Below, piece after piece: positions 11,926-63,035 of a stretch of DNA of 64,000 nt. The number at the start of each line of letters is the position of its first letter. Within the stretch, counting starts at the first letter, position 1. Below the pieces are notes generated by a model that saw nothing but the letters and a program-made list of their open reading frames with translations, was not told the DNA's origin and ran no database searches. Both the position numbers and the translations under genes were made by a program. Origin of the DNA: Eledone cirrhosa (taxonomy: Eukaryota); NCBI GenBank assembly GCA_964016885.1, contig OZ024746.1, forward strand, positions 92,442,001-92,506,000, in the 5' to 3' direction.

Positions 11926-11964
<39 letters not shown>

Positions 11965-12159: not shown

Positions 12160-12333
12160 CAAAGTGCGTTTTATAAATTTTGACATAGCCAAGGAACATA
12201 CCTTAATGGTTGAAGTTATCCTTGGATAGTGGACTTAAAGACCACTAAAAGTCTTTAAGTCCACTATTCAAGGATAACTTCAACCATTAAGGTATGTTCC
12301 TTGGCTATGTCAAAATTTATAAAACGCACTTTG

Positions 12334-12395
12334 TATTTTATCTGATGAAAGCGTACCAAAGTTTTTGGTACCCTTGAAATATATATAATAGAATA
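12334..12395 (+). ncRNA. Type I hammerhead ribozyme with palindromic stem III
   Basis: tattttat-CTGATGA-aagcgtaccaaagtttttggtaccctt-GAAA-tatata-TA-atagaata; predicted cleavage after AUA (12387). Confidence 0.85.
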
Positions 12396-12537
12396 AATAT
12401 GGTTTTATAAATATAATTTCCATTTATTTAATATCATTGAATATTATACTCCAGAAAACTTGTCGAGTGCTCTGAATCAGTTATAAACATTTATATTTGT
12501 TGAATTACCAACAAATTGAATATTCCTTCTGCTTATA

Positions 12538-12636
<99 letters not shown>

Positions 12637-14679: not shown

Positions 14680-14844
14680 TTCAAATATTAAAAATAACAC
14701 TCAACTCATTTGCAATTATGCAAACAAGCCTCAATCTTATAGCCATGTCAGTAGAATGAACCCTTCATTCTACTGACATGGCTATAAGATAGAGGCTTGT
14801 TTGCATAATTGCAAACGAGTCAAGTGTTATTATTAATATTCGAA
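14680..14844. repeat. Fold-back palindrome (~80-bp arms, ccc loop)
   Basis: ...gtcagtagaatgaa ccc ttcattctactgac...; abuts the 5' truncation point of an RTE. Confidence 0.9.
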
Positions 14845-16350
14845 TATAGTGAAGAATTTAGCGTAAAAGTTGGTGTTCATGAAGGCCCTGTCCTTAGCCC
14901 CCTCCTATTTATTATTGCCCTTCAGGCTATAACAGAGGAGTCGAAAGACCAGCTGTCCATGGGAACTTCTATACGCCGATGATCTAACTCTCATAGCTGA
15001 ATCTATGGCTGAACTAGAGAAGAAATTCCAAACATGGAAGCATGGCATAGAATCAAAAGGCCTTAAAGTTAACTTGTCTAAGACTAAAGTTCTAGTATGT
15101 AGAAAGGAAAATAGGGCACAGGTCCCCTCTGGGGAAATAGCCATGCTCAGTGTGTAGGAAAGGAGTAGGCAGAAATTCCATTTTATGTCCCAAATGCAAA
15201 CTATGGGTACATAAAAGATGTAGTGGGATCACAGGTAAACTATCTAAGAACATAGATTTTATATGTGGCCAATGCTCAGGTGCAATAAGTAGCATGTGCA
15301 CACAGAATACTAGCTCCTTCTATTGTCCAGATGGTTCTATAGAAATAGTGGACACCTTCCGTTACCTGGGTGACAAAATCATCAGTGGTGGAGGGTGCTC
15401 TGAAAGTACAGTAGCCAGAGTCAGAACGGGATGGAAAAAGTTCAAAGAGCTTATACCACTATTGGCCACTAAAGGTTTCTCTCTAAAAATGAAAGGGAGA
15501 TTGTATGATGCTTGTATACGAACAGCAATGCTACATGGCAGTGAGACATAGGCATTGTGTGCAGAGGATCTGTGCAGACTGGAGAGGAACGAAGCATGCA
15601 TGCTCCGTTGGATGTGTAATAGTAATATATGCGAACGGCAAAGCATAAATGAACTAAGTGAGAAATTAGGAATAAGAGGGATCAGATGCTGTTTACTTGA
15701 GAGAAGACTACATTGGTATGGTCACATGATGCACATGAAAGACGACAGCTGTATAAAAAAAGTGCAGGGCGATCAAAATTGATGGAAGTTACGGAGGAGG
15801 CAGACCCAGAAAAACCTGAGACAATTTGATAAATTCCGACCTTACACACTTACATCTCTCTAAGACAATGTCACTGGAGTGAGATCTTTGGCGCTACGCA
15901 GTAATACAGAAGACTTGCCTTGCCTATGTACATAGCGAAATCTACAGTCAGTTACAGTCAGTAGGCACTTCTTAACCAAATATACACCTCCATCCCACTA
16001 GCCCTACTCCACCCCTCACTCCCACCAACACCACCCTCTCTCTGTAAAGTTATGTTGGTACCACAACATCCAGTTCTAAATAAATGAGGTCGTGTAGGTG
16101 TCACAACAAAAAAAAAACACACAGTCCACGCTGTAATGTGGCCGTGTAGGTAACACGGTAAAAACCTCCCAGTCCACACTGTAAACGTGGTTGGTGTTAG
16201 GAAGGGCATCCAGCTGTAGAAAACCTGCCAGACAGTCCTATACAAGCGAGACACAGCCTCCCGACCAATCTTGCCTCAAGTGAGACAATTCCCATCTAAA
16301 CCCATGCTAGCGTGGAAGATAGACGTTAAACACGGTGATGATGATGATGA
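14841..16350 (+). mobile_element. 5'-truncated RTE LINE (RT C-half, PHD-like finger, 3' UTR, (GAT)n), with frameshifts and stops
   Basis: Colinear and highly similar to 61859-63210; WELLYADDL, CSVCRKGVGRNSILCPKC. Confidence 0.95.
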
Positions 16351-20814: not shown

Positions 20815-22475
20815 CCTACCCTATTGTCAGTACCCTATAGTATTCCACCCTAATTTACTACCCTATAGTCCCTCACCCTATTGTCAGTACCCTATAGTCT
20901 CTCACCCTATATTTACTACCCTATAGTCTCTCACCCTATATTTATTACCCTATAGTCTCTCACCCTATATTTATTACCCTATAGTCTCTCACCCTATATT
21001 TATTACCCTATAGTCTCCCACCCTATATTTACTACCCTATAGTCTCTCACCCCATATTTACTACCCTATAGTCACTCACCCTATATTTATTACCCTATAG
21101 TCTCTCACCCTATATTTACTACCCTATAGTCTCTCACCCTATATTTACTACCCTATAGTCTCTCACCCCATATTTACTACCCTATAGTCTGTCACCCTAT
21201 ATTTATTACCCTATAGTCTCTCACCCTATATTTATTACCCTATAGTCTCTCACCCTATATTTATTACCCTATAGTCTCCCACCCTATATTTACTACCCTA
21301 TAGTCTCTCACCCCATATTTACTACCCTATAGTCACTCACCCTATATTTATTACCCTATAGTCTCTCACCCTATATTTATTACCCTATAGTCACTCACCC
21401 TATATTTACTACCCTATAGTCTCTCACCCTATATTCATTACCGTATAGTCACTCACCCCATATTTACTACCCTATAGTCACTCACCCTATATTCATTACC
21501 GTATAGTCTCTCACCCTATATTTACTACCCTATAGTCTCTCACCCCATATTTACTACCCTATAGTCACTCACCCTATATTCATTACCGTATAGTCTCTCA
21601 CCCCATATTTACTACCCTATAGTCACTCACCCTATATTCATTACCCTATAGTCTCTTACCCTATATTTACTACCCTATAGTCTCTCACCCTATATTTATT
21701 ACCCTATAATCTATCACCCTATATTTACTAGCCTATAGTCTCTCACCCTACATTTATTACCCTATAGTCTCTCACCCTATATTTACTAGCCTATAGTCTC
21801 TCACCCTATATTTACTACCCTATAGTCTCTCACCCTATATTTATTACCCTATAGTCTCTCACCCTATATTTATTACCCTATAGTCTCTCACCCTATATTT
21901 ACTACCCTATAGTCTCTCACCCTATATTTATTACCCCATAGTCTCTCACCCTATATTTATTACCCTATAGTCTCTCACCCTACATTTATTACCCTATAGT
22001 CTCTCACCCTATATTTACTAGCCTATAGTCTCTCACCCTATATTTACTACCCTATAGTCTCTCACCCTATATTTATTACCCTATAGTCTCTCACCCTATA
22101 TTTATTACCCTATAGTCTCTCACCCTATATTTATTACCCTATAGTCTCTCACCCTATATTTATTACCCTATAGTCTGTCACCCTATATTTATTACCCTAT
22201 AGTCTCTCACCCTATATTTATTACCCTATAGTCTCTCACCCTATATTTATTACCCTATAGTCTCTCACCCTATATTTACTACCCTATAGTCTCTCACCCT
22301 ATATTTACTACCCTATAGTCTGTCACCCTATATTTATTACCCTATAGCCTCTCACCCTATATTTATTACCCTATAGTCTCTTACCCTATATTTACTAGCC
22401 TATAGTCTGTCACCCTATATTTATTACCCTATAGTCTCTCACCCTATATTTACTAGCCTATAGTTTCTCACCCTT
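20815..22475. repeat. 29-bp minisatellite (tatttactaccctatagtctctcacccta), ~57 copies
   Basis: Homogeneous tandem array. Confidence 0.95.
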
Positions 22476-30590: not shown

Positions 30591-31119
30591 ATCATCATCA
30601 TCATCATCATCATTTTACGTCTGCTCTTCCCTGTTCACAAGGGTGGGACGGGTCTTATTCAGCATCTCTCAACTCGTCATGGTCCTTCGTCATCTCCACC
30701 AGATGACAGATCGGGGTACCCTATCAAAGGCCTTCTCTAGGTCAACAAAGGCTAAGTATAGTGGCTTATTTTTCTCTAAGAACCTCTCTTGCAATTGTCT
30801 CACCAAGAAGAGGGCATCTGTTGTACTCTTCCCAGACACAAAACCAAACTGCATCTCATCTAGTTTGACCCTTTCTCTAATTAGTTGTGCTAATATCCTT
30901 TCTGCCACTTTCATAACCTGATCCATCAGTTTTATACCCCTATAATTGCTCCTCTCCAGAGCATCCCCTTTACCTTTGTAACAATTTATGAGAATACTGC
31001 TGCACCAGTTTTGGGGTATGACACCACCATATATAGCCTGATTGATGATGCGTGTAACCAGTTTAGTGCCTACGTCCCCTGATGCCTTCAGCACCTCAGC
31101 AACTATTCCCGATGGTCCA

Positions 31120-31121
<2 letters not shown>
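30591..31121 (-). mobile_element. Internally deleted RTE (RT motifs 0-3 joined to a 3' tail)
   Basis: ORF 30690..31094 YKGKGDALERSNYRGIKL...QFGF...AFVDLEKAFDRVPR, then a (GAT)n tail. Confidence 0.9.
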
Positions 31122-31160
<39 letters not shown>

Positions 31161-31169
31161 GTGTGTGTG

Positions 31170-31356
31170 TATCCCAGGTTCAATCGAGGGTAACCACAGT
31201 AAGTAAGGTACTCAATACATAGTAGAGTATATAAAATATTTAATATAGAAATGGCTTCTACAGGACTAGAACTGTTTCATTCGAAGGAAATCATCAGGAA
31301 AGCCCTTTGAATGAAGCAGTTCTAGTCCTGTAGAAGCCATTTCTATACTAAATATT
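31170..31356 (-). mobile_element. Fold-back PLE-end element with hammerhead (31253..31304) and terminal hairpin (31210..31228)
   Basis: Reverse strand ggctttc-CTGATGA-tttccttcgaat-GAAA-cag ttctagtc ctg-TA-gaagcc. Confidence 0.75.
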
Positions 31357-32169: not shown

Positions 32170-34120
32170 ACAAGTTAGTTATTAGCAACATCAAAATAAA
32201 TACAAGACAGAACAAGATATGCAGAAAAATATGGAGACAGAAGATCTGGAAGCTAAAGGACCTTTCAGTTGAATATAGGTTTAGAAGGCCCTACAGGATG
32301 CAGTAGATGAGAGGGGTGATGAACTAGGTACATATAACATAGAGGACAACTGTAAATTTCTACGTGACATCATTTTGCAAACTACTGACAAGACTTGTGG
32401 CTGGAGTAAAGCACCAGCCAGACAGAGGGTAACCTGGTAGTGGAACAGCACAGGGGATAGAACCATTAAAGCCTAGAGACAGGTTTGGAAAGACTGGAAA
32501 AAATGGGGGTGGAAAGCTAGGAGAGAGGCTGAAAAAAGAAAGTTTGCCAGTGTCCTGAGATGTGAAGTGTTCTGTATTACAAGACAGTGTGTCAGTGTAA
32601 ATTGAGATGTTGTTGGGGGAAAAGTGTGTTAAAAATAACACTGTGCACATAACACCACTGATACTAAAAAAAAAGAGGCCTGGAAATGTTACTATGAGAG
32701 ATTGACGAATGTAGAGAATAAATGAGAGGAAGAGAAACTACCCCCAACCCACCCAACAGATGGACCAGCTATGGAAGTTGAGGGTTATAAGTTCAAAGAA
32801 ATGAAGAATGGTAAAGCTGCAGGACTTTCAGAGATAGTTGCTGAGATGCTAAAAGCATCTGGAGAAGTAACCTGCATTGTCAATCAGGTAATACAGGATG
32901 GTGTCATACCCAATACCTGGTACAGCAGTACAAACTAGTAACCCTACATAGTCAATCAAGTAATACAGGATGGTGTCATACCCAATACCTGGTACAGCAG
33001 TACAAACTAGTAACCCTACATGGTCAGTCAAGTAATACAGGACGGTGTCATACCCAATACCTGGTACAGCAGTACAAACTAGTAACCCTACATAGTCAAT
33101 CAAGTAATACAGGATGGTGTCATACCCAATACCTGGTACAGCAGTACAAACTAGTAACCCTACATAGTCAATCAAGTAATACAGGACGGTGTCATACCCA
33201 ATAACTGGCACAGCTGTACAATCATAAATTGCCACAAGGGCAAAGGTGATGCTCTAGAAAGGAGCAGCTATAGAGGAATAATGGACCAAGTTATGAAAGT
33301 GACAGAAAGAGTTATAGCGCAACTAATTGGAGTAAGAATCAGATTAGACAAGATGCAGTTTGGTTTCATGCCTGGGAATAGTACTACAGACGCCCTCTTC
33401 TTAGTGAGGCAACTACAAGAGAAGTTCTTTACCAAAAATACACTACACCTAGTTTTCGTTGACCTAGAAAAAGTGTTTGACAGAGTACCCCAATCTGTTA
33501 TCTAGTGGCCCTTAAGGAAATTAGGTGTAGAAAAATGGTCGGTGAGAGCAGTGCAAGCTATATAGACAGGCGTCATCTGTAAAGTGAGAGTAAGAAAGGA
33601 GTTTAGCAAGGAATTCAAGGTAGAAGTAGTTCATCAAAGTTCAGTTCTTAGCCCACTGCTGTTCATCATAGTTCTCCAGGCCATAACAGAGGTGTTTAAG
33701 ACTAGCTGCCTATGGGAACTTCTCTATGCAGATGATCTGGTCCTTATAGCCAAATCCATTAAAAACCTAGAAAATAAGTTCCAACTATGGAAATAGAATT
33801 TAGAATCAAAAGGCCTAAAAGTAAACTTAGCCTAAACTAAAGTACTAGTGAGTAGGAGAGAAGACAGGACCCTGATTCCTTCAGGGAAGTGGCCTTGCTC
33901 AATATGCAGAAAAGGAGTAGGCATAAATGCCACATGGTGTACACAATGTACATCTTGGGTACACGAGATGTAGTGGAATAACCGGTAGACTAACAGGAAG
34001 GGAAGACTTTGTAGAAGATGTACAGGAGAAATCAAAGGGAAGAGTGACAATGATATAAACCTCTTCAAGTCACAGGAAGGGTCTATAGAAGTGGTTGATA
34101 GCTTCTGCTATCTAGGTGAC
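32170..34120 (+). mobile_element. Degenerate RTE (linker-RT-PHD region)
   Basis: ORF pieces MDQVMKVTERVIAQLI...DLEKVFDRVP, WELLYADDL, PSGKWPCSICRKG; many stops. Confidence 0.9.
32878..33215. repeat. 72-bp tandem duplication of RTE coding sequence, ~4.7 copies
   Basis: caatcaagtaatacaggatggtgtcatacccaatacctgg... repeated; homologous to 61425-61470. Confidence 0.9.
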
Positions 34121-36177: not shown

Positions 36178-38477
36178 GAAGTTACTGTCCTCCTAGACAG
36201 GTTATAGGACCACATCTCAGTTACTGCCCTCCTAGACAGGTTATAGGACCACATCTCAGTTACTGCCCTCCTAGACAGGTTATAGGACCACATCTCAGTT
36301 ACTGTCCTCCTAGCCAGGTTATAGGACCACATCTCAGTTACTGCCGTCCTAGACAGGTTATAGGACCACATCTCAGTTACTGCCCTCCTAGACAGGTTAT
36401 AGGACCACATCTCAGTTACTGCCCTCCTAGACAGGTTATAGGACCACATCTCAGTTACTGCCCTCCTAGACAGGTTATAGGACCACATCTCAGTTACTGC
36501 CCTCCTAGACAGGTTATAGGACCACATCTCAGTTACTGTCCTCCTAGCCAGGTTATAGGACCACATCTCAGTTACTGCCCTCCTAGACAGGTTATAGGAC
36601 CACATCTCAGTTACTGTCCTCCTAGCCAGGTTATAGGACCACATCTCAGTTACTGCCCTCCTAGACAGGTTATAGGACCACATCTCAGTTACTGTCCTCC
36701 TAGACAGGTTATAGGACCACATCTCAGTTACTGTCCTCCTAGCCAGGTTATAGGACCACATCTCAGTTACTGCCCTCCTAGACAGGTTATAGGACCACAT
36801 CTCAGTTACTGCCCTCCTAGACAGGTTATAGGACCACATCTCAGTTACTGCCCTCCTAGCCAGGTTATAGGACCACATCTCAGTTACTGCCCTCCTAGAC
36901 AGGTTATAGGACCACATCTCAGTTACTGCCCTCCTAGACAGGTTATAGGACCACATCTCAGTTACTGTCCTCCTAGCCAGGTTATAGGACCACATCTCAG
37001 TTACTGCCCTCCTAGACAGGTTATAGGACCACATCTCAGTTATTGCCCTCCTAGACAGGTTATAGGACCACATCTCAGTTACTGCCCTCCTAGACAGGTT
37101 ATAGGACCACATCTCAGTTACTGCCCTCCTAGCCAGGTTATAGGACCACATCTCAGTTACTGCCCTCCTAGACAGGTTATAGGACCACATCTCAGTTACT
37201 GCCCTCCTAGACAGGTTATAGGACCACATCTCAGTTACTGTCCTCCTAGCCAGGTTATAGGACCACATCTCAGTTACTGCCCTCCTAGCCAGGTTATAGG
37301 ACCACATCTCAGTTACTGCCCTCCTAGACAGGTTATAGGACCACATCTCAGTTACTGCCCTCCTAGCCAGGTTATAGGACCACATCTCAGTTACTGCCCT
37401 CCTAGCCAGGTTATAGGACCACATCTCAGTTACTGTCCTCCTAGCCAGGTTATAGGACCACATCTCAGTTACTGCCCTCCTAGACAGGTTATAGGACCAC
37501 ATCTCAGTTACTGCCCTCCTAGACAGGTTATAGGACCACATCTCAGTTACTGCCCTCCTAGACTGGTTATAGGACCACATCTCAGTTACTGCCCTCCTAG
37601 CCAGGTTATAGGACCACATCTCAGTTACTGCCCTCCTAGACAGGTTATAGGACCACATCTCAGTTACTGTCCTCCTAGCCAGGTTATAGGACCACATCTC
37701 AGTTACTGCCCTCCTAGACAGGTTATAGGACCACATCTCAGTTACTGCCCTCCTAGACAGGTTATAGGACCACATCTCAGTTACTGTCCTCCTAGACAGG
37801 TTATAGGACCACATCTCAGTTACTGTCCTCCTAGACAGGTTATAGGACCACATCTCAGTTACTGTCCTCCTAGCCAGGTTATAGGACCACATCTCAGTTA
37901 CTGTCCTCCTAGCCAGGTTATAGGACCACATCTCAGTTACTGCCCTCCTAGCCAGGTTATAGGACCACATCTCAGTTACTGCCCTCCTAGACAGGTTATA
38001 GGACCACATCTCAGTTACTGTCCTCCTAGCCAGGTTATAGGACCACATCTCAGTTACTGCCCTCCTAGCCAGGTTATAGGACCACATCTCAGTTACTGCC
38101 CTCCTAGCCAGGTTATAGGACCACATCTCAGTTACTGCCCTCCTAGCCAGGTTATAGGACCACATCTCAGTTACTGCCCTCCTAGCCAGGTTATAGGACC
38201 ACATCTCAGTTACTGCCCTCCTAGACAGGTTATAGGACCACATCTCAGTTACTGCCCTCCTAGACAGGTTATAGGACCACATCTCAGTTACTGTCCTCCT
38301 AGCCAGGTTATAGGACGACATCTCAGTTACTGCCCTCCTAGACAGGTTATAGGACCACATCTCAGTTACTGTCCTCCTAGCCAGGTTATAGGACCACATC
38401 TCAGTTACTGTCCTCCTAGACAGGTTATAGGACCACATCTCAGTTACTGCCCTCCTAGCCAGGTTATAGGACCACAT
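36178..38477. repeat. 39-bp minisatellite (gttataggaccacatctcagttactgYcctcctagMcag), ~59 copies
   Basis: Very homogeneous array; 13-aa periodic ORF on the minus strand. Confidence 0.97.
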
Positions 38478-39549
38478 CCCACTCATTTCATTGTGTCTTA
38501 TACATGGGCAATGAAATGAAGGTAATGTAGGTTTTGAGACTTTAGAGTCCACCCTGTAGAGTGGGAGTACTGGTGTTAAACTACCCAGTACGCCCTATAA
38601 AGGTATCAAGAGGGGTATCCAACTATAGAAACCATGTGAAATATTGAACTTAACAAGCAACATGGGCTCCTCCAACCCACCTGAACTCAGGCCAAGACAA
38701 TTTGTCTGACCCATGCTAGTATGGACAGTGGACATAAACATGGTGATGATGTGTATTTGAAAATATAGATTCATTATTAATTTCTTCGATTTAATTGTTT
38801 TGTTTTGTCAAAATAATTCTTTGTTAATCTATTGTCGTTTTTATTCTTATGATCCTTCCTCAATCTGACCTGTATTCTATGGTAAGAATGTGTGAAAAAG
38901 GGAGAGAGAGGGTGAGAGAAAGAAAGAGGGAGTGAGAGGGCGAGAGAAAGAAAGAGGGAGAGAAATTATTTTTACAAAAAATATTGTTTATACTCCTTTT
39001 TATAGAAGTAAAATATTCCATTTTGGTATTTTTAGTCATTTGGTAAATTATCCAGTTTATTTTTGTTATTTTGTATATGTGTAAATATTCTGTAAATATT
39101 ATTTGTATGGATATATATGTATATAATGAGTAATTTAGAAGAATACAGTGCTTCAGGCATAGAAGTCATTGTTATCATTTCGGCCTTGCTTCCTGGAGAA
39201 CTGCTTAATGATAACAGAAAGAGAATATTGTTAAAGAACTAATCCAATGTTCTGAGGAAAGTGAGACCTGAATAGAACATTTTAGCATAACAATAACAAA
39301 GAAACCTAAGAATTCCAACAATTTAACAAAAAAATAGTTGAAATACTTACATTTCATATCTGGACCATATATATAAATTCATATATATATGTAGGTACCA
39401 AGGCCTTTTGCCCATATATGTTTGTGAGTATTGATTTATTATTTTTTAGATCGACACAGGCAGACTATATGTATTTGAATTAAGATATTTCATTCTAGCT
39501 ATTTTATTGTCAATTGCAACAAAAACATGTAAATGTTTATCATATATTA

Positions 39550-42237: not shown

Positions 42238-45110
<2,873 letters not shown>

Positions 45111-45660: not shown

Positions 45661-45686
45661 AATATATATGTATATATATATGCATA

Positions 45687-45728
<42 letters not shown>

Positions 45729-45913
45729 GATAAATCTACCAAGAGTTTACGGTAGTGTCCAATCCGTATGAAGAACTCAATGTATTCCGGATATCATGGA
45801 AAGAAGAGATGTAATGAAAATCCACTTTCGGTGAAAGATAAACGGTATACAGAGTCAAGATAAAATATTAAACAAATAATGAACAAACAATTCCTTATAT
45901 TAAACAAAAAAAG

Positions 45914-46068
45914 TTCACTATTTAACGATCGTTTCTAGGGTATATATGTGTTATAATTGGTATGCATATTCAACAGATCTATGTACAAAATTATACAAAA
46001 TTATACAAATTATCAAGATTAAATATACATACCTAACACATATATACGCCGTCTTCAGAAATAATGAA
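45914..46068 (-). ncRNA. Hammerhead ribozyme with ~115-nt extended stem II (sense to PLE)
   Basis: Mirror of 54698..54852. Confidence 0.8.
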
Positions 46069-46888
46069 GTATATTTATTGATAATAACAACAATTCAAAA
46101 TATCAGTTCAAAATTGACCAATGAAAACACAAAGGGTTAAAAGCAGTTTGGTGTGTGTATATACATGTAAAATCCTTACACATATTTTACAATAATGTGT
46201 GTATAATTTGTATGTGCATACTAAAAAGATGGATGCAAACACAAAATTTCAAGGTTAATATCTCTGTAAGCTTAATGCGCTGATAAGATGCGCGATGATA
46301 CTTATGGAGTCAAGCATATAAATTTATTTTTTTCATACTCACACATATCAGTATAATCACACATACATGCGCGTATATGCATAACTATACACATAACCAC
46401 GAACATACAAACACACACACTCCCCCACTCACATTTATATATGTGGATATAAAATCATAAGCAAATAGAAATTAAGTCACTCACATAAAACACTGGCACA
46501 CACATTTCAAGATCAAGATACAGAAATTAGGTGGGAGGGGGGGGAGGGGTCAGTATTAGATTGTCAGAGCAGACTGCCTAATATAAATGTATCTATAAAT
46601 TAAGAAAAATAAAAAAATAAAAACAATAAAATATAATAAATATAATATAATGTACATACACATACAGATATACATACACATACATACATGTACGCGCACA
46701 TAGAGATATTTACGCATACACACATACACACATACGTATACAGTCATACACACACATACACTTACACGAACATACACATACACATATAAAAAGATATATA
46801 TACACACACACACACGCGCAACACATACACACATACACATATATATAAAAAATAGATAATAAAGATATATATCCATATATATATATAT

Positions 46889-46943
<55 letters not shown>

Positions 46944-47032
46944 TATACACATACATACCCATACATCTAAATATACATACACATACATACACACATACAT
47001 GCATATACATGTACATACATATACGCACATCG

Positions 47033-47086
<54 letters not shown>

Positions 47087-47430
47087 TCACATAGACATAA
47101 AGATACATACACACACAACTTACATACACACGCATATATATATATATATATATATATAGATGTACCTTCATACATAGAATTAGATATATAATCATACATA
47201 CATATGCACCTACTTATACTCATATAAATAAATACATACGCTTCCATATATGTGTATACACATAAAAAACAATACCACCTCACCAAACTCAGACATACAA
47301 ATGAAAATAATAATAAACAAACGCATATGTATATACATACACACACGCATTAATAGAGATATATATATATACACACACATACATACACACACATATATAT
47401 ACACATACACACACACATACATACACATAC

Positions 47431-47477
<47 letters not shown>

Positions 47478-47481
47478 TAGA

Positions 47482-47518
<37 letters not shown>

Positions 47519-47793
47519 ATATATATCCACACACTCATACCACCATAAATACACATACAAACACCCACATGTATATATATATATATATCCACATACACAC
47601 ACGTATACATATATATATATATATATACACATACATATATATATATACACACACATAAAAAACAGACATGCACATATATATATATATATATATATTTCAT
47701 TACTCTTATATATACACATAGTATATATACATACACAACCTCACTTATACACATATACACATAAGTTATATTACAATAATAATAAAGAATAAT

Positions 47794-47826
<33 letters not shown>

Positions 47827-48052
47827 CATATATATATATATATACATACATACATACACATACATACATACACATAAATATATACATACATAAATACACA
47901 CATACGAATAAAGACATATATTCACACATAGACACCTATATACATATATATATATATATATATATCTATATATATATATATACATATATACATATATATA
48001 TATATATACACACATACACACACACACACACACACAGACACACATACACACT

Positions 48053-48087
<35 letters not shown>

Positions 48088-49744
48088 ATGTGAGTGTGCG
48101 CACACACACATATATACACACACACATACAAACACACACAAACACATACATATGCATACGTGCACACACACACACATATATCACATAGATACGAAGATAA
48201 ACATATAAATAGAGAGACATACAAATATATACACAACACATATACACATACATACATACACGCATACACATATACATACATATATACACATATATATATT
48301 CCTATATACAAGCATACACATACATACACATACATACATATACATACACATATACATACCACACATTCACATACACATACATATATAATACATATATATA
48401 CATATATATACATACATATGTATGTACAATCATATATACACACTCAATCTTACATTCATATTTACATGCTCATATATGTATTTTTATATTTAGAAATAAA
48501 TACCAAAACCTATATAGACACCCACCTACATATATATTCATACATATACGCTTACAAATACAGATGATAATAGTATGGGGGAAAGGGGGGGTTTGGAGAA
48601 GGGGATCAAAGTAAATATGTTTCAAGAAACATATAATATTTTCCGTATCTTAATTCAATGTATGTTCTTACATATTTTCAGTGCTAGGAAATACGAAATC
48701 TATGCATCTCAAAATAAATAAGTATACCATTAATCATATGTTAACTAAACCAAAGATAGTCAACATATTGATTTCTAAGGTGTAAATTAGTTAGGTTTAT
48801 AATATTTGAAGCAGAATTATGAAGTCAAACAGTAGTAGATTATTAATTACATTATAACTAAATTAAAGTTAATAACGTTATGGTATCAATATTAGGAGAT
48901 GAATTTAGTAATAGGGAAAAGAAACCCAAATAAAAATAAAATAAAGTATTACATCGGTAGTAGCATATAAATTATATGTTAACTAAATTAAAAATTATAT
49001 ATTTATTTCAATAGTATACGTTAATTAGTATATGTTAATTAGGTATACAATACATAAAGCAGATATTGTATTTCATCAATAGCATAATATAATTATATGC
49101 AAATAAAAATCAAAATTAATACGCATACATATACATATACATACACATACACATATACATACATATACACACATATATATATATATATACATATATATAC
49201 ACATATATACATATATACACACATAAACATACATACAGATACACATACACAACACACACATATACATATACATATACATATACATATCTTTTTCAAAAAA
49301 TTGCACAGAATATATTAACTAGGTATATATCCAAAACACATCCCATTCTATGATTACATGACATTCTGCAATTCATCTGTACAAGGATACTAATTTTAAG
49401 CAAATTAAAATTAAAGTTTTAGGTTGATTAAAACTAAAACCAAATAATAAATATATTTCCAAAATGTATATTAATTAGGTCTATAATACTAAAAATTCTT
49501 TCTCCGTCATTGGATACATGATATTATTTTGTTATATTTTATCTGTAAAAGAATTATAATAAAAAGGTTTAAATAAATTAAAATTAATCTATAAATTAAA
49601 TTACTGAGTATATATTAGTAATATTTAAAGGTTTTTCAAAATTTATGATTACATAATATTTTCTCATCTGTAATAAAATATTAATTAAATTAAATTTATA
49701 GGTTAACTAACATTTAAATTAAATTAATTTCTAGAATAATGTTA

Positions 49745-51337
49745 TTAATTAGGTTTATAATATTTAAATGTTTTTTTTAGTTTATGATTACACGATATAA
49801 TTAATTCCTGTCGTTTATTTAATAAGATATCCTTAGACTTCATTATTTCAAATAGTTCTTGGGAACATAATCTACATTCCTTTCTATTATTTTGATAAGG
49901 GGTGGCTCTTTTGAGCACACTCCAGGTCAAATCATATTTTATATTTTTATTTTTATAACTATTGATTTTTTCTGCTAGAGATGTTGTATTAGCCAGTGCG
50001 GCATTTTTAAAGCTATGTTTGTGGGTATTATACCTTGTCTTAAAATTGTTAGAGGTAGCTCCTATATATGAGCAAATAGAATCTTTAGTTTTAACATTAC
50101 ATTTATAGACTATGTTGTTAACAAGACAATTCCCTTTTAATGGGCAGTTTGTTTTGTTTCTACAGTTACATCCTTTCGTTAATTCTGTATTTGAGGAGAT
50201 ATTATTGTTAATTTGATGTACTGGTGGTATACTTATGGTTTTCTTACATTTATATGCATTATATGCACTTATATTTTGTTTTATGTTATTTGTTGTAGAG
50301 TATGAGAATTTAACTGTAGACCTATTTAAGATTTGATGGTATTTGTGGTTTGGCGGGAAGTTTTTCTCAAGGATATAAAAAAATTTTTTAGCAATATTAT
50401 CCTTAACTTGTAAATTAAAAGGAGCATTATACCAAGTAACTCGTCTATTACGGTTTCTATGTTGTTTATTATTTTTATTATTTTTATATGTTGTATCATG
50501 ATTTTTATTAGGAGGATTAATGTTAATGATCTCACCACAACTATTTTTAGTTATATTTGTAGATTTAGGTGTTTTATCTTTTTTATTAGGAGTTTTATTA
50601 TTAATATTTATTATAGTTGTATGATGAGTAGTTTTTTGAGGGTTACTATACTTTATATTAGAAGATTTAGTATTTTGGGGTATATTGTGGGTGGCATTTA
50701 GGTGTGTACTTTTCATTTGGTGTTTGTTGGTAATATTATGCTGTATGCTTTCAGTATTTTTAGTAGAAGGTATATACTCTAATCTATTTTTGTGGCCACT
50801 TCTATCTAGAGCTTCATTATAAAAGGTCGCATTTTTATCAAATACATCTTGGTTAGAAGAAAGGTTAGAAATTCTAAGTGATATATTATATGCAAGGTTT
50901 TTAAGGATAGATTTAGGGTGATTAGATTGTGAGTGTATGTAATGTAAGTTTTGGTTAGGTTTATGGTAAGGTTGGTATATACCCGTAGCTAAATCTAAAG
51001 TTATATCTAGGAAATTTACTACTTTACTTGTTTTTTCAAAAGTAATATTAAGATTATAATAGTCTTTAAGGAAAGTTCTAATATGCTTTTTGTTTTTTTC
51101 GATTTCTGAAAGGCTAAGGTTGTTAGAAAGAAGAAGACAGTCATCACGATATAAACCACCTTTGAGGTGGGGAAAAGAGGCATTTATGTTGAAAAGGAGA
51201 AAGAGGCCCACAAGATCAGTAATTTGGGCGGAATCGCTTGAACCCATAGTAATATCAAAAAGATTACTGTATGTGTTTCTGGTCCAGTATTCATTCTGAA
51301 ATTCAATAAGTGTTTGTCTAGCATGTGTAATAATTTT
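49745..51337 (-). CDS. PLE reverse transcriptase (C-half) + GIY-YIG endonuclease, 5'-truncated, no internal stops; probably Hydra-clade-like
   Basis: Frame open upstream of the ATG (KIITHARQTL...FDITMGSSDSA), GLYRDD, NFLDITLDL, CNCRNKTNCPLKGNC linker, IVY...YIG, RYNTH, CRLCSQE, LLNKRQE, SCNH. Clade assignment is from recalled motifs. Confidence 0.9.
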   Translation of the reverse strand, partial: KIITHARQTLIEFQNEYWTRNTYSNLFDITMGSSDSAQITDLVGLFLLFNINASFPHLKGGLYRDDCLLLSNNLSLSEIEKNKKHIRTFLKDYYNLNITFEKTSKVVNFLDITLDLATGIYQPYHKPNQNLHYIHSQSNHPKSILKNLAYNISLRISNLSSNQDVFDKNATFYNEALDRSGHKNRLEYIPSTKNTESIQHNITNKHQMKSTHLNATHNIPQNTKSSNIKYSNPQKTTHHTTIININNKTPNKKDKTPKSTNITKNSCGEIININPPNKNHDTTYKNNKNNKQHRNRNRRVTWYNAPFNLQVKDNIAKKFFYILEKNFPPNHKYHQILNRSTVKFSYSTTNNIKQNISAYNAYKCKKTISIPPVHQINNNISSNTELTKGCNCRNKTNCPLKGNCLVNNIVYKCNVKTKDSICSYIGATSNNFKTRYNTHKHSFKNAALANTTSLAEKINSYKNKNIKYDLTWSVLKRATPYQNNRKECRLCSQELFEIMKSKDILLNKRQELIISCNHKLKKTFKYYKPN

Positions 51338-51456
51338 AATTTGCTTAAAATTAGTATCCTTGTACAGATGAATTGCAGAATGTCATGTAATCATAGAATG
51401 GGATGTGTTTTGGATATATACCTAGTTAATATATTCTGTGCAATTTTTTGAAAAAG

Positions 51457-51492
<36 letters not shown>

Positions 51493-52664
51493 GTGTGTTG
51501 TGTATGTGTATCTGTATGTATGTTTATGTGTGTATATATGTATATATGTGTATATATATGTATATATATATATATATGTGTGTATATGTATGTATATGTG
51601 TATGTGTATGTATATGTATATGTATGCGTATTAATTTTGATTTTTATTTGCATATAATTATATTATGCTATTGATGAAATACAATATCTGCTTTATGTAT
51701 TGTATACCTAATTAACATATACTAATTAACGTATACTATTGAAATAAATATATAATTTTTAATTTAGTTAACATATAATTTATATGCTACTACCGATGTA
51801 ATACTTTATTTTATTTTTATTTGGGTTTCTTTTCCCTATTACTAAATTCATCTCCTAATATTGATACCATAACGTTATTAACTTTAATTTAGTTATAATG
51901 TAATTAATAATCTACTACTGTTTGACTTCATAATTCTGCTTCAAATATTATAAACCTAACTAATTTACACCTTAGAAATCAATATGTTGACTATCTTTGG
52001 TTTAGTTAACATATGATTAATGGTATACTTATTTATTTTGAGATGCATAGATTTCGTATTTCCTAGCACTGAAAATATGTAAGAACATACATTGAATTAA
52101 GATACGGAAAATATTATATGTTTCTTGAAACATATATTTACTTTGATCCCCTTCTCCAAACCCCCCCTTTCCCCCATACTATTATCATCTGTATTTGTAA
52201 GCGTATATGTATGAATATATATGTAGGTGGGTGTCTATATAGGTTTTGGTATTTATTTCTAAATATAAAAATACATATATGAGCATGTAAATATGAATGT
52301 AAGATTGAGTGTGTATATATGATTGTACATACATATGTATGTATATATATGTATATATATGTATTATATATGTATGTGTATGTGAATGTGTGGTATGTAT
52401 ATGTGTATGTATATGTATGTATGTGTATGTATGTGTATGCTTGTATATAGGAATATATATATGTGTATATATGTATGTATATGTGTATGCGTGTATGTAT
52501 GTATGTGTATATGTGTTGTGTATATATTTGTATGTCTCTCTATTTATATGTTTATCTTCGTATCTATGTGATATATGTGTGTGTGTGTGCACGTATGCAT
52601 ATGTATGTGTTTGTGTGTGTTTGTATGTGTGTGTGTATATATGTGTGTGTGCGCACACTCACAT

Positions 52665-52699
<35 letters not shown>

Positions 52700-52925
52700 A
52701 GTGTGTATGTGTGTCTGTGTGTGTGTGTGTGTGTGTATGTGTGTATATATATATATATATGTATATATGTATATATATATATATAGATATATATATATAT
52801 ATATATATGTATATAGGTGTCTATGTGTGAATATATGTCTTTATTCGTATGTGTGTATTTATGTATGTATATATTTATGTGTATGTATGTATGTGTATGT
52901 ATGTATGTATATATATATATATATG

Positions 52926-52958
<33 letters not shown>

Positions 52959-53233
52959 ATTATTCTTTATTATTATTGTAATATAACTTATGTGTATATG
53001 TGTATAAGTGAGGTTGTGTATGTATATATACTATGTGTATATATAAGAGTAATGAAATATATATATATATATATATATGTGCATGTCTGTTTTTTATGTG
53101 TGTGTATATATATATATGTATGTGTATATATATATATATATATGTATACGTGTGTGTATGTGGATATATATATATATATACATGTGGGTGTTTGTATGTG
53201 TATTTATGGTGGTATGAGTGTGTGGATATATAT

Positions 53234-53270
<37 letters not shown>

Positions 53271-53274
53271 TCTA

Positions 53275-53329
<55 letters not shown>

Positions 53330-53673
53330 GTATGTGTATGTATGTGTGTGTGTATGTGTATATATATGTGTGTGTATGTATGTGTGTGTATATATATATA
53401 TCTCTATTAATGCGTGTGTGTATGTATATACATATGCGTTTGTTTATTATTATTTTCATTTGTATGTCTGAGTTTGGTGAGGTGGTATTGTTTTTTATGT
53501 GTATACACATATATGGAAGCGTATGTATTTATTTATATGAGTATAAGTAGGTGCATATGTATGTATGATTATATATCTAATTCTATGTATGAAGGTACAT
53601 CTATATATATATATATATATATATATGCGTGTGTATGTAAGTTGTGTGTGTATGTATCTTTATGTCTATGTGA

Positions 53674-53727
<54 letters not shown>

Positions 53728-53816
53728 CGATGTGCGTATATGTATGTACATGTATATGCATGTATGTGTGTATGTATGTGTATGTATATTTAGATGTATG
53801 GGTATGTATGTGTATA

Positions 53817-53873
<57 letters not shown>

Positions 53874-54697
53874 ATATATATATATATGGATATATATCTT
53901 TATTATCTATTTTTTATATATATGTGTATGTGTGTATGTGATGCGCGTGTGTGTGTGTGTATATATATCTTTTTATATGTGTATGTGTATGTTCGTGTAA
54001 GTGTATGTGTGTGTATGACTGTATACGTATGTGTGTATGTGTGTATGCGTAAATATCTCTATGTGCGCGTACATGTATGTATGTGTATGTATATCTGTAT
54101 GTGTATGTACATTATATTATATTTATTATATTTTATTGTTTTTATTTTTTTATTTTTCTTAATTTATAGATACATTTATATTAGGCAGTCTGCTCTGACA
54201 ATCTAATACTGACCCCTCCCCCCCCCCCCTCCCACCTAATTTCTGTATCTTGATCTTGAAATGTGTGTGCCAGTGTTTTATGTGAGTGACTTAATTTCTA
54301 TTTGCTTATGATTTTATATCCACATATATAAATGTGAGTGGGGGAGTGTGTGTGTTTGTATGTTCGTGGTTATGTGTATAGTTATGCATATACGCGCATG
54401 TATGTGTGATTATACTGATATGTGTGAGTATGAAAAAAATAAATTTATATGCTTGACTCCATAAGTATCATCGCGCATCTTATCAGCGCATTAAGCTTAC
54501 AGAGATATTAACCTTGAAATTTTGTGTTTGCATCCATCTTTTTAGTATGCACATACAAATTATACACACATTATTGTAAAATATGTGTAAGGATTTTACA
54601 TGTATATACACACACCAAACTGCTTTTAACCCTTTGTGTTTTCATTGGTCAATTTTGAACTGATATTTTGAATTGTTGTTATTATCAATAAATATAC

Positions 54698-54852
54698 TTC
54701 ATTATTTCTGAAGACGGCGTATATATGTGTTAGGTATGTATATTTAATCTTGATAATTTGTATAATTTTGTATAATTTTGTACATAGATCTGTTGAATAT
54801 GCATACCAATTATAACACATATATACCCTAGAAACGATCGTTAAATAGTGAA
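54698..54852 (+). ncRNA. Hammerhead ribozyme with ~115-nt extended stem II
   Basis: ttcattattt-CTGAAGA-cggc gtatatatgtgtta ggtatgtatatttaa...ttgaatatgcatacc aatta taacacatatatac ccta-GAAA-cgatcg-TT-aaatagtgaa. Confidence 0.8.
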
Positions 54853-54897
54853 CTTTTTTTGTTTAATATAAGGAATTGTTTGTTCATTATTTGTTTA

Positions 54898-54943
<46 letters not shown>

Positions 54944-55118
54944 ATTACATAAACGGAGAAAGCTAATAGCGATACTCCGACCAATTTCCAACTCACTCAA
55001 CAAACATTAGGAAATACCGGAGTATGTTCCCAATTAAACGTTTGGGGTGCTAACTATATTGTATTGTGTGGATAATTGGCTGTATTATTTTATATGAGAT
55101 ATATTAAAGATCTCATTT

Positions 55119-55484: not shown

Positions 55485-56119
55485 TGCATCCCCTTGCATT
55501 GAACCACAAAGTTACTAAGACAAAACCTATATATTTGCTAGCATAGGTATGCATCTGTATATATATGTTGGTAGATATACTAATTCTTTATAGTTATCTC
55601 CAAATTGTTTTGTTGAGCAAAAATTTGCCAAAACTGCTACTATAGTTCATAGTAACGACTTCGCTACTGTCTTTTTAACACCCCACTCCTCACTGATTAA
55701 CCTCGATGTCACGTGATTGATTCTTTTGAATTTGCCACCGACCAAGTAGGCAGTGATTTTTTTTCAATGTCTTGGAATTTAGTCCACGCTTGCTTTTTTC
55801 CATCCACTGAATTATTTTTGTATAAGTTCCCTGTGTCCACGCACGCCAGGTATCTTAGCTGAGAACAGACTTCCTGATGACGAAACGGCTTCTCCGTGCT
55901 TTCCATTTGGAAACCATGTTTATTCCCTTTTAGAAACTAATTAGTTGGAGTGAAATTTTAGTAAGTTAATTTTTATAATTTTCTTATTTTACGTCATTCA
56001 TATAATTGTTCTGCATCCCCTTGCATTGAACCACAAAGTTACTAAGACAAAACCTATATATTTGCTAGCATAGAGATGCATCTATATATATATGTTGGTA
56101 GATATACTAATTCTTTATA
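55485..56119. repeat. 108-bp direct repeats (55485-55592, 56012-56119) around a ~420-bp core
   Basis: tgcatccccttgcattgaaccac...ctaattctttata duplicated with ~3 differences; flanked by TA/TATG microsatellite. Confidence 0.85.
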
Positions 56120-59590: not shown

Positions 59591-59910
59591 AAATAATGAC
59601 TGTATATGACTGTATATATGTGTATGTGTGTGTATGTATGACTGTATATATATATATGTATGACTGTATATATGTATATATGTATGACTGTATATATGTA
59701 TATATGTATGACTGTATATATGTGTGTGTGTATGAATGTATGTATGACTATATATCGTCATCATCATCGTTTAACATCTATTTACCATGCTTGCATGAGT
59801 TACACAAGTCGTCCACATCATGAGACAAGTCTGGTCAGCTGGCTGTCATACCTTGGTCAGCATTTTTTCAGCTAGATGGATGCACTTCCTAACACCAACC
59901 ATGTTTACAG

Positions 59911-59979
<69 letters not shown>

Positions 59980-59981
<2 letters not shown>

Positions 59982-62900
59982 GGTTGTAGAAATGCTTGAA
60001 CGTAAGGAGGTCGATGTTTGTTGTATTCAAGAGACCTGGTGGAAGGGTGGGTCTGCTAGATTCATTGTGGGTAAAGAACGATGTTATAAGCTTCTCTGGG
60101 TGGGAAATGACAATGGGCTGGGTGGAGTAGGAATCATGGTAGCAGAAAAGTGGGCAGATAAGATAATAGACGTAAATAGAGTGAACGACAGAATAATTAA
60201 AATAAGACGTGTCCTCAATAGAACTACTGTGACAATAATATTTGCATATGCACCACAATCCGGACTGCCTGGCGTTATAAAAGACAGATTCTATGAGACG
60301 TTAATGCTCACTACCTCCCAAATAACCGACAGTGACTACATAGTTATCGCTGGCGACCTAAATGGTCACGTTGGACAACATTGTGACGGCTATGACGAAA
60401 TCCATGGAGGCTATGGGTTTGGTACTAGAAATGAGGAAGGCTCCAGAATCCTGGAATTCTGTGACGTAAATAACCTAACTATCTGTAACACTAACTTCAA
60501 AATACGAGACAATCACTTGATCACCTATAGATCAGGGGAACACACAAGCCAGGTAGATTATATCCTTAGCAGGAGATGTGACAGAGTGTCTGTTGTAAAC
60601 ACTAAATCCCTCCCCCATGAAGAATGCACTTCTCAACATAGACTCATAATTAACGACCTCATAGTCTGGACGAGACGTACTCGACAACAGAAGAGGACTA
60701 TCCTCAGGAGAAAAATATGGAAGTTAAAAGACCCCACAGCCAGTAATAAATTTAAAAGCATATTACTTGATGCTTTAGAGTCGTACAATATAGAGGAACA
60801 GTGGGAATTCCTGAAAGCTAACCTGCTGAAGGCGACAGATGAAACCTGTGGCTGGAGCAGACCTATAGGCAGGAGGAGAGTAACTCGGTGGTGGAACAGT
60901 AAGGTGGAGGGGTCAATCAAGCCCAAAAAGCAGGCTTGGAAAGCATGGCGGGATGGGGGAAGTAGAGAAGACTATCAAGTGGCCAGGAGGGAAGCTAGGA
61001 GACAAGTGTACTTCGCAAGAAGGGAAGCAGAGGAAAGAAAGTTCAAGCCTGTTCTACAACGCGAGGACCAAAAATGTGAGGTGTTCAGGATTGCTAGGCA
61101 ATGTGTCAAGGAAAACAGTGATATTGTCGGGGAGAAGTGTGTCCTTAATGATGATGGGGTACTTGCCATCACTGACGCTGAAAAGAAGGTAGCTTGGAAG
61201 TGTCACTACGAAAGGCTACTAAATGAGGAGAATAAATGGGAAAAAGATAGTCTCCCCCACATCGACCCAATAGAGGGACCAGCAGTGCAAGTTGAAGGTA
61301 GTATAATAAGTAAGGCGATCAAAGACATGAAGACGGGCAAGGCGGCCGGGCCTTTGGAAATAGTTGCTGAAATTCTGAAAGCATCTGGAACGGTGGGACA
61401 CACTATGGTCACTCGGATAGTAAACCAAGTCATACAGAATGGGGTCGTTCCGAAGGACTGGCGCAGCAGCATTATCATTAACTGCTACAAGGGTAAAGGT
61501 GATGCCCTAGATAGAGGAAACTATAGAGGCATTAAATTAATTGACCAGGTCATGAAGGTCACAGAAAAAGTAATAGCGCAACTAATCAGAGAGCGAATTG
61601 ATCTAGACGAAATGCAGTTCGGGTTTGCGTCAGGTAAAAGTACAACATACGCTCTCTTCATTGTACGACAACTACAGGAGAAGTACTTAGCTAAAAGTAA
61701 ACCCCTATACTTAGCCTTTGTTGACTTGGAGAAAGCCTTTGACAGAGTAGCCGCTCAATTATCTGGTGGGCCCTTAGAAAACTAGGTGTTGATGAATGGC
61801 TTGTGAGAGCTATACAAGCCATGTATAAAGAAACAGTCAGCAAGGTTAGAATTAACAACGAATATAGTGAAGAGTTTAGCGTAAAAGTTGGTGTTCATCA
61901 GAGCTCCGTCCTTAGCCCGCTACTATTTATTATTGCCCTTCAGGCTATAACAGAGGAGTTCAAGACCGGCTGCCCATGGGAACTCCTATATGCAGATGAT
62001 CTAACGCTCATAGCTGAATCAATGGCTGAACTCGAGAAGAAATTCCAAACATGGAAGCATGGCCTAGAATCAAAAGGCCTTAAAGTTAACTTGTCTAAGA
62101 CTAAAGTTCTAGTTTGTAGGAAGGAAAATAGGGCACCTGTCCCATCTGGGAAATGGCCATGCTCAGTGTGTAGGAAAGGAGTAGGCAGAAATTCCATTTT
62201 ATGTCCCAAATGCAAAGTATGGGTGCATAAAAGATGTAGTGGGATCACAGGTAAGCTAACTAAGAATATAGATTTTATATGTGGCCGGTGCTCTGGTGCA
62301 ATAAGTAACAGCAAGTGCCCACAGAATACTAGCTCATTCCATTGCACAGATGGTTCTATAGAAATAGTGGACAGCTTCCGTTACCTGGGTGACAAAATCA
62401 GCAGTGGGGGAGGGTGCTCTGAAAGTACAGTAGCTAGAGTCAGAACGGGATGGAAAAAGTTCAGAGAGCTTATACCACTATTGGCCGCTAAAGGGTTCTC
62501 TCTAAAAATGAAAGGCAGGCTGTATGATGCCTGCATACGAACAACAATGTTACATGGCAGTGAGACCTGGGCATTGTGTGCAGAAGATATACGCAGACTG
62601 GAGAGAAACGAAGCTTGCATGCTCCGTTGGATGTGTAATAATAATATACGTGAACGGCAAAGCATAAACGAACTAAGGGAGAAATTAGGAATAAGAGGGA
62701 TCAGATGTTGTTTACTTGAGAGAAGACTACGTTGGTACGGTCACGTGATGTGCATGAAAGACGACAGCTGTATAAAAAAGTGCAGGGCGATAAAAATAGA
62801 CGGTAGCCACGGAGTAGGCAGACCCAGAAAAACCTGGGACGACTTGATAAATTCCGACCTCACACACTTACACCTCTCCAAGACAATGTCCACTGGACCG

Positions 62901-63035
62901 AGATCTTTGGCGCTACACAGTTATACAGAAGACCCGCCTTGCCTAAGTACAAAGCGAAACCTACAGTCAGTAGGCACCTCTATCAAAATACACCCCCGTC
63001 CCACTACCCCCACCCCATCCACACCACTCCCTTAA
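59980..63035 (+). pseudogene. RTE APE-RT polyprotein, broken by a frameshift near 61750 (ORFs 59980..61785 and 61803..63035)
   Basis: DRV then a frame change into RSIIWWALRKLGVDEWLVRAIQAMY; further indel near 62890 relative to the 14841 copy. Confidence 0.9.

Follow-up and report, generated by a model that had tools for sequence, protein, structure and literature searches.

The stretch of DNA analysed here, referred to as the window, comprises 64,000 nucleotides. Inspection of the sequence reveals a type I hammerhead motif with an exact core on the plus strand of this Eledone cirrhosa DNA (54698–54852). The motif is part of an inserted Penelope-like element (PLE), the features of which are listed in Table 1. 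The open reading frame (ORF) of the element is flanked by two arms that form a 3.55-kb inverted repeat (45860–49413 and 51331–54906) of 99.36% identity, with one substitution and five gaps. An earlier note on this DNA had pointed to a duplicate of the hammerhead at 45914–46068. The duplicate is indeed identical, but it is located on the minus strand, in the other arm of the same insertion, and it is the only hammerhead match, sense to the ORF, in the 3' UTR of the element. Because both copies belong to one insertion, they are not independent and provide no covariation, and the duplicate was rejected as evidence of that kind. The opposite orientation of the two copies also means that they cannot dimerize within one transcript.

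An insertion into (TA)n, an inverted 5'-truncated copy and a tail on one side only are all found at the locus (45662–54943). A 5'-truncated element joined to an inverted truncated copy, with a one-sided tail, is a layout described for PLEs (PMC8557442). Comparison with contigs shows that the tail of the left arm is shared by other copies, where (TA)n then follows. Since the locus is a truncated, recent insertion, it is an unlikely place of ribozyme action. About 2 kb of degenerate (TA)/(TG) microsatellite is situated in the 3' UTR of the element (46560–48570, mirrored at 52190–54200) and is intact in both arms.

A Pfam scan of the ORF fragment (49745–51330) returned no families, and 251 homologues were found at E ≤0.001. 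The motifs together with these homologues identify a reverse transcriptase (RT) followed by an endonuclease (EN) of the GIY-YIG type at the C terminus. The query was aligned with 40 among the 120 homologues listed (41 sequences). The CxCX5C linker, at query residues 405–413, is present in 39 of the 41 sequences, and the CxxC and CxH motifs around a conserved E and N, at query residues 503–509 and 522–533, are present in 38 and 35, respectively. A cysteine pair (CxxC) inside the GIY-YIG region is found in none of the 41. RW[KR] occurs in 27 of the aligned sequences, DK[TS] in 38 and DKG in one; the N-terminal part of the query is truncated, and its own DKT at residue 269 lies elsewhere. Judged by the linker and the cysteine motifs, which are diagnostic for the clade, the element is a member of the Hydra clade of PLEs. 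A Nematis-like or Neptune identity was dropped, as the CX2-5CxxC linker and the CCHH motif are not present. The locus does not have the form of a non-LTR retrozyme (head-to-tail tandem repeats of 150–400 nt that each bear a hammerhead, no ORF) either, the copies being inverted and 8.6 kb apart around an RT-EN ORF. In viral contigs, no relative of the ORF protein and no match to a 17-base motif were found.

Table 1. Features of the hammerhead and of the element that carries it
Feature	Positions	Strand	Remarks
(TA)n flank, left	45662–45725	.	
Tail (about 135 nt), left arm only	45726–45859	-	Long hairpin closed by ACUC/GAGU, 73-nt spacer
3' UTR, 3.9 kb, microsatellite-rich	45860–49744	-	Sense to ORF
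Identical hammerhead copy	45914–46068	-	Sense to ORF, 3687 nt past the stop codon
ORF: 5'-truncated RT, CxCX5C linker, GIY-YIG; Hydra clade by its motifs	49745–51330	-	528 open codons including stop
Inverted 5'-truncated arm, 3' UTR only, without tail	51331–54906	+	Holds hammerhead 54698–54852
Stem I, 5' strand	54698–54707	+	10 pairs with 54843–54852, one U-G
Catalytic core C3–A9, CUGAAGA	54708–54714	+	Sequence
Stem II base, 5' side: extra C, then G10.1, G, C	54715–54718	+	Two registers
Extended stem II, 5' strand (14-bp and 15-bp helices)	54719–54747	+	Pair probability ≥0.99 in five contexts
Apical 45 nt of domain II, weak hairpin, 10-nt tandem repeats	54748–54792	+	
Extended stem II, 3' strand	54793–54826	+	Predicted fold; 5-nt bulge 54808–54812
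Stem II base, 3' side CCUA, and core G12–A15.1 GAAA	54827–54834	+	Sequence; GAAA is 54831–54834
Stem III, perfect 8-nt palindrome A15.1 to U16.1	54834–54841	+	Monomer 2 bp, dimer 8 bp
H17 = U, predicted cleavage 3' of this base	54842	+	Analogy with hammerhead core
Stem I, 3' strand	54843–54852	+	Predicted pairing
Exact 10-nt repeat of stem I 5' strand (54883–54892) plus one base, predicted stem I competitor	54882–54892	+	
(TA)n flank, right	54904–54943	.	

Anatomy of the hammerhead and its relatives

Both halves of the catalytic core are complete, with C3-U4-G5-A6-N7-G8-A9 at 54708–54714 and G12-A13-A14-A15.1 at 54831–54834. The A15.1–U16.1 pair is formed by A54834 and U54841, and the NUH triplet is GUU at 54840–54842, where the earlier note had placed it. 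By analogy with the hammerhead core, cleavage is predicted after U54842. All 10 pairs of the proposed stem I were located, as were the two long helices claimed for stem II: 54719–54732 pairs with 54813–54826 in a 14-bp helix, and 54733–54747 pairs with 54793–54807 in a 15-bp helix. The extended stem II, put at about 115 nt, corresponds to a domain II of 116 nt (54715–54830), but the firm helix accounts for only about 29 bp and is capped by a weaker 45 nt. The palindrome described as CGAUCG is likewise present in stem III, but it is 8 nt long, from A15.1 to U16.1, rather than 6. In a fold of 171 nt, three helices with the open ends in stem I are predicted, with pairing probabilities of 0.87 for stem I, 0.99 for stem II and 0.25 for stem III. 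The self-duplex of stem III has a predicted energy of -10.0 kcal/mol, and its pairing probability in the monomer is at most 0.25.

The base of stem II can be arranged in two registers, and C54715 and A54830 face each other as a mismatch in only one of them. This facing register reads C.A, G-U, G-C, C.C. The C.A pair that had been proposed for the base is thus limited to this register, and the energy model prefers the slipped register (probability 0.80 versus 0.05), in which G54716 pairs with C54828, G54717 pairs with C54827 and C54715 is unpaired, leaving two extra bases before G12. The advantage of the slipped register is 2.3 kcal/mol, or 1.2 kcal/mol with the majority base at 54826. In both registers G54716 is the first paired base, either with U, with the C.A outside, or with C, followed by the two extra bases. 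Homology favours the facing register, because the hammerhead at 12342 in the same window has the same spacing (A-U, A-U, G-C, C.C) and the motif at 55874 opens only with C.A and G-U. When the long hammerhead and the short relative at 12342 were compared by eye, the latter had the same GCGUA/UACCC base with a C.C mismatch.

Loci of relatives were collected from metagenomes (78) and genome bins (16), and 87 of these 94 have the EN match on the plus strand. A sense hammerhead lies within 700 nt of the EN match in 37 of the 87; the flank is shorter than 300 nt in 27, and 23 have no strict match. A looser rescan of these 23 loci gave short motifs (11–25 nt) in five, and in L024 a doubtful candidate of 63 nt, whose core is non-canonical and which lies 1858 nt downstream. 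The 34 distinct motifs of the relatives have a domain II of 10–31 nt and are situated 42–366 nt past the EN match. Stem II opens with U.U in 15, G-C in 15, G-U in three and A-U in one of them, so that a mismatch at this place occurs as U.U in 15 of 34 and C.A in none. H17 is A in 23, C in six and U in five. For published Hydra families, canonical hammerheads are listed in 25 of 27, with a domain II of 12–26 nt, and a count by eye gave U17 for 10 of the 26 rows; PLE-X1_cBra is printed with a C/A pair of additional bases (PMC8557442, File S2). The hammerhead of one relative, L091, resembles by eye the row of Hydra-2_aMil.

Since the mismatch slot and U17 recur in relatives, neither this slot nor the GUU site is exceptional within the clade; C.A is uncommon, and the length of domain II is the real outlier. 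The premise that PLE hammerheads are usually minimal also does not suit this clade, whose motifs carry a stem III of 3–4 bp. The 3' end is bloated in parallel. The distance from the stop codon to the ribozyme is 3687 nt, compared with 42–366 nt after the EN match in the relatives, and the spacer of the tail hairpin is 73 nt, compared with 9–17 nt. This hairpin has the form GCUC-N9-17-GAGC in 21 of the 34 relatives and, by reading of the sequence, ACUC/GAGU here; the majority variants did not improve its fold (-30.9 versus -30.4 kcal/mol) and lend it no support.

The conserved hairpin, GCTC-N9-17-GAGC(A/G)CT, is located 36–61 nt past the cleavage site at L009, L019, L020, L022, L032–L034 and 14 more loci. 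Several copies without it become (TA)n just before its place, which suggests that the hairpin is part of an optional tail and a candidate site of RT binding or initiation. Hydra-like PLE ORFs with hammerheads were also present in bacterial genome bins (L079–L094), several of them titled as invertebrate symbionts, and these are most likely host DNA in the bins.

Elsewhere in the window, a 650-nt near-perfect palindrome with (TA)n flanks (11923–12573) consists of two head-to-head 3' ends of another PLE family. Its hammerheads (C3 at 12342 on the plus strand and 12151 on the minus strand) have a 27-nt domain II and an 8-nt palindromic stem III. A diverged inverted pair of hammerhead-like motifs is situated between (TA)n tracts at 42295–42509; the minus-strand motif at 42391 has a 39-nt domain II, and its plus-strand partner is shorter and looks damaged. 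A degenerate hammerhead-like motif at 55862–55960, referred to as 55874, opens with C..A and G-U and has a 52-nt domain II. All four motif types in the window thus have a domain II of at least 27 nt, which places them close to or beyond the upper limit seen in relatives. ORFs of the LINE kind, in two frames and with motifs of an endonuclease and an RT, which we take to be RTE-like, are found at 59893–63035 and as several diverged fragments at 14821–16217, 30690–31211 and 33164–33994. There are also two tandem arrays, at 36180–38478 (39 nt × 59, 97%) and 20831–22474 (29 nt × 57, 92%), and a 2.5-kb (AT)n tract at 42568–45100.

Detection, chance and other copies of the family

An Rfam scan of the window gave no matches at the gathering score. 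At E ≤10, there were 10 matches in the region 54500–55100, none to a hammerhead family and all of them chance microRNA-like ones. The published min-HHR descriptor specifies a stem II of 3–7 bp, a loop of 3–10 nt and no real stem III (PMC4209133, Fig. S7). The motif at 54698–54852 reaches the score of no Rfam hammerhead family and falls outside this descriptor, which supports the suggestion that it is an expanded variant missed by standard descriptors. As this family shows, the domain II of a PLE hammerhead can be four- to tenfold longer than usual. For viral type I motifs, a "long helix II" means 6–8 bp. No PLE hammerhead with a domain II near 100 nt was found in the literature searched; Lunse et al. 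2017, which reportedly covers about 150,000 variants linked to PLEs, lies outside its scope, as does Arkhipova et al. 2017, and either may list some. As a long-stem hammerhead escapes the descriptors, descriptor-based counts, and statements that a PLE family is without a ribozyme, may be underestimates.

The 171-nt region folds at -48.8 kcal/mol (z = -6.6), and none of 200 shuffles was equally stable. A relaxed hammerhead descriptor was devised for this analysis, and both strands of the window were scanned with it. It gave six matches in the real window compared with 0.03 per block-shuffled window, and a match with a stem I of at least 10 bp was obtained in none of 200 shuffled windows. A chance match in AT-rich microsatellite DNA, or a fold-back artefact of the assembly, could be suspected from the helices, which are TA/TG-rich like the surrounding UTR, and from the near identity of the arms. 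However, the shuffles for fold stability and for the descriptor speak against it, as do the position of the motif, which is the place expected in a Hydra element, the presence of the long motif in contigs from three further studies, and the inverted 5'-truncated copy with its one-sided tail, which is the PLE layout described above. An origin by chance or artefact is therefore highly improbable, and this reading has already been largely refuted.

Other copies of the family were examined by comparing the region 45735–46330 with the contigs of 4 of 20 listed runs, which carry four organism labels and come from four studies; one of them, X1, may be the source of the window itself. Overlapping contig pieces cover the long domain II in all four runs, no joint skips it, and no single piece spans the whole stretch. 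In these contigs, 35 places are variable, nine of them in the 155 nt inside the motif and 26 in the 441 nt outside, which is the same density. The core, the junction and stem III are without a variant (0 of 26 positions), and for CUGAAGA none is listed at ≥3% in the four runs, so that a core that fails to be conserved in other copies, named by the earlier note as grounds for abandoning its proposal, was not encountered. This test has little power: with equal variant density inside and outside the motif, an unchanged core has a P of about 0.21 by chance, which is not significant. At a P of about 0.2 core invariance is no proof of selection, because the family is too young.

H17 varies only from U to A, and a subfamily has GUA. 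Five transitions in the helices, two in stem I and three in the 3' strand of stem II, all keep pairing (P about 0.045). Two of seven helix substitutions break a pair, both of them transversions, one at 54728 and one at 54698 in the terminal pair of stem I. One-base deletions occur at 54730–54732, the end of the first helix, and loose contig ends reveal a subfamily in which the second helix has another 5' arm, whose partner strand is not visible. Among the family copies, no two-sided compensatory change was seen. Judged from these contigs, the long form is characteristic of the family, and the evidence that pairing is under selection is mild. Contig depth, which does not equal copy number, rises about tenfold just 5' of stem I. 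At 46090–46098, one contig in each of the runs X5 and X7 departs from the window sequence 22–30 nt upstream of stem I, and what follows is almost identical in the two contigs. This is a hint that another upstream element is joined to the long hammerhead and tail as well.

Possible roles of the long stem II and of a downstream repeat

The motif described here is probably an active hammerhead of type I, located at the 3' end (pLTR) of a PLE family in the Hydra clade, in which a long stem II is tolerated. Most likely, the ribozyme would be assisted by dimer formation or by a protein, and the bloating of its stem II would be tolerated. Where a master copy is transcribed in tandem or with read-through, two hammerheads would pair via the 8-nt palindrome and so build helix III; alternatively, the protein of the element might chaperone folding. 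The cut after U54842 would then yield RNA of unit length, or provide the unit downstream with a defined 5' end. Stem II may have grown from about 25 to 116 nt within the family-wide bloating of the 3' end; the extension would keep its pairing, as it has to join the core halves. Engineered hammerheads accept large insertions in stem II if they make no contact between loops. The length of stem II is probably dispensable here, because these ribozymes use no contact between loop I and loop II. Dimer cleavage with low activity has been reported for PLE hammerheads (PMC4209133). For the anole element, uncut RNA is described as serving as template, with reverse transcription initiated in the tail region and a ribozyme that depends on the protein (PMC11167929). 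Both arms extend beyond the cleavage site, by 60 and about 195 nt, so that the integrated RNAs were uncut there, in agreement with the anole element.

Several observations weigh against an active ribozyme. The invariance of the core is not significant, two-sided compensatory changes were not seen, and two of the seven helix substitutions break pairs. There are also the deletions at 54730–54732 and the subfamily with a different second-helix arm, and C.A is absent from the 34 relatives. Pairing is weak at the foot of stem II, where the preferred register places two additional bases ahead of G12. The two copies in the window are on opposite strands and form no dimer within one transcript, and run X1 may be the source from which the window itself comes.

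Downstream of the motif, the 5' strand of stem I is repeated. This competitor was found post hoc, in AT-rich sequence; an exact 10-nt repeat arises in 71 of 20000 shuffles, and one of at least 11 bp in 36 of 5000. Once the repeat is included in the fold, the predicted probability of stem I, 0.87 without it, drops to <0.01, and for the 3' cleavage product a hairpin is predicted that starts at its first base (0.93–0.97). Measured against 100 shuffles each, the competitor is stronger than 97 and 100 of them in the two arms and than 96 of them at the related 12342 hammerhead. The effect is not seen at the 42391 and 55874 hammerheads, for which 44 and 92 of 100 shuffles were as good, and the helix was rejected as a clade-wide feature, as only 1 of 32 relatives beat at least 29 of 30 shuffles. 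Four of five variants in the competitor helix keep pairing, the commonest, at 54882, breaks the 11th pair, and the loose ends of the diverged subfamily retain the 10-nt repeat. Stem I is already lost (0.04) to other downstream pairing before the repeat is reached, so the competition is not specific to the repeat. A downstream repeat that captures the 3' strand of stem I would be a simple means of holding the ribozyme off in the integration RNA.

The long stem II and the competitor could instead have been selected as a regulated switch, in which the ribozyme would be locked off by the competitor as soon as the transcript extends beyond 54892, and the 5'-OH product of a cut would be capped by it. 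The 29-bp helix would in addition be a platform for a dsRNA-binding factor, either the protein of the element or ADAR acting on A54830. The predicted loss of stem I in the presence of the repeat, the margin over shuffles, the pairing kept by the competitor variants and the repeat kept by the subfamily fit this proposal, and another hammerhead in the window, 55874, shares the C..A / G-U base. ADAR prefers UAG and A.C mismatches, and A54830 is located in UAG, opposite C, at the foot of the long duplex. The idea of editing also draws on the likeness of this microsatellite-rich DNA to cephalopod genomes. However, the post hoc discovery of the competitor, its rarity among relatives and absence at 42391 and 55874, the broken 11th pair in the commonest variant and the earlier loss of stem I to other pairing make a regulated switch unlikely. 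Its most elaborate version is decidedly improbable: a natural switchable hammerhead in which the downstream stem I copy would decide between a cut, giving a defined 5' end, and a whole template, and in which the 29-bp stem II would serve for docking, so that cleavage is turned on by the protein of the element or by host editing (A-to-I) of the invariant A54830, which would close the C.A slot. Long-stem hammerheads unseen by descriptors might then also be behind some PLE families reported with only a core or half a core.

A further possibility is that the motif is a non-cleaving vestige, inactivated by the expansion, the weak C.A / G-U / G-C / C.C base, the GUU site and the competition, and that its core looks intact solely because of the family's youth. 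Cleavage may not be required for PLE transposition. Ribozyme mutants left PLE insertion in vitro unimpaired, and for the anole element RNA ends at the site were not detected (PMC11167929); Naiad elements are described as thriving without canonical hammerheads (PMC8557442). The equal density of variants inside and outside the motif agrees with a vestige, as does the active fold, which is predicted to be a minor state in long contexts. Yet the 90-nt expansion spared all core bases, the 10-bp stem I and the perfect palindrome, and the transitions all keep pairs while H17 varies only from U to A, both of which fit retention better than decay, so that loss of cleavage appears rather unlikely.

For the assisted ribozyme with a tolerated stem II, which we prefer, the long hammerhead would be a modest addition to ribozyme diversity if the length of stem II is neutral. 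If it is true that a competitor or editing controls cleavage, this would explain how elements keep their template uncut. The locus offers a test system, in which a long stem II can be compared with a short one from the relative in the same window, a monomer with a dimer, and the presence of the natural competitor with its absence.

Comparison with known hammerheads

The Clec2 motif is a type III hammerhead, with its insertion in loop I rather than in stem II. The mammalian discontinuous Clec2 hammerheads share with the motif described here core halves that are split by a long insertion, and they are active in vitro; in contrast, their insertion of several hundred nucleotides is reported from an mRNA 3' UTR and not from a retrotransposon (PMC6765202). 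Closer in context is the protein-assisted hammerhead of PAc (Poseidon), which is also a PLE ribozyme at the 3' end, upstream of the tail, with uncut RNA as the integration template, whereas it belongs to a different clade and is described with a short stem II and an ORF start inside the ribozyme (PMC11167929).

In PLE-X1_sMoe and PLE-X1_sTam, the halves of a PLE core are also parted by a long domain II, counted here as about 54 and 48 nt, but these are plant elements without EN, marked as deviating, and the domain as printed is half the length and lacks a 29-bp helix (PMC8557442, File S2). The min-HHR motifs share CUGANGA-H-G where stem II begins, additional bases that may be present on both sides, a palindromic stem III and the dimer model; as described, their helix II has 3–8 bp, their loop has at most 10 nt, and in most of them stem III does not exceed one or two pairs (PMC4209133).

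The closest known system is that of the Hydra-clade PLE hammerheads. As listed in File S2 of PMC8557442, these are also of type I, in the sense orientation near the 3' end, with a self-complementary stem III of 3–4 bp, frequent mismatches or extra bases at the base of stem II, and a common U17. A (TA)n target and an inverted 5'-truncated copy, the latter as in Penelope-13_HM, are described for the clade as well (PMC8557442). The hammerhead described here differs from them in its domain II of 116 nt, compared with 12–26 nt, in its C.A in place of U.U or G-C, in a stem III that is a perfect 8-nt palindrome, and in the 3.9-kb 3' UTR in which it is embedded, where whole published elements measure 1.1–3.0 kb (PMC8557442).
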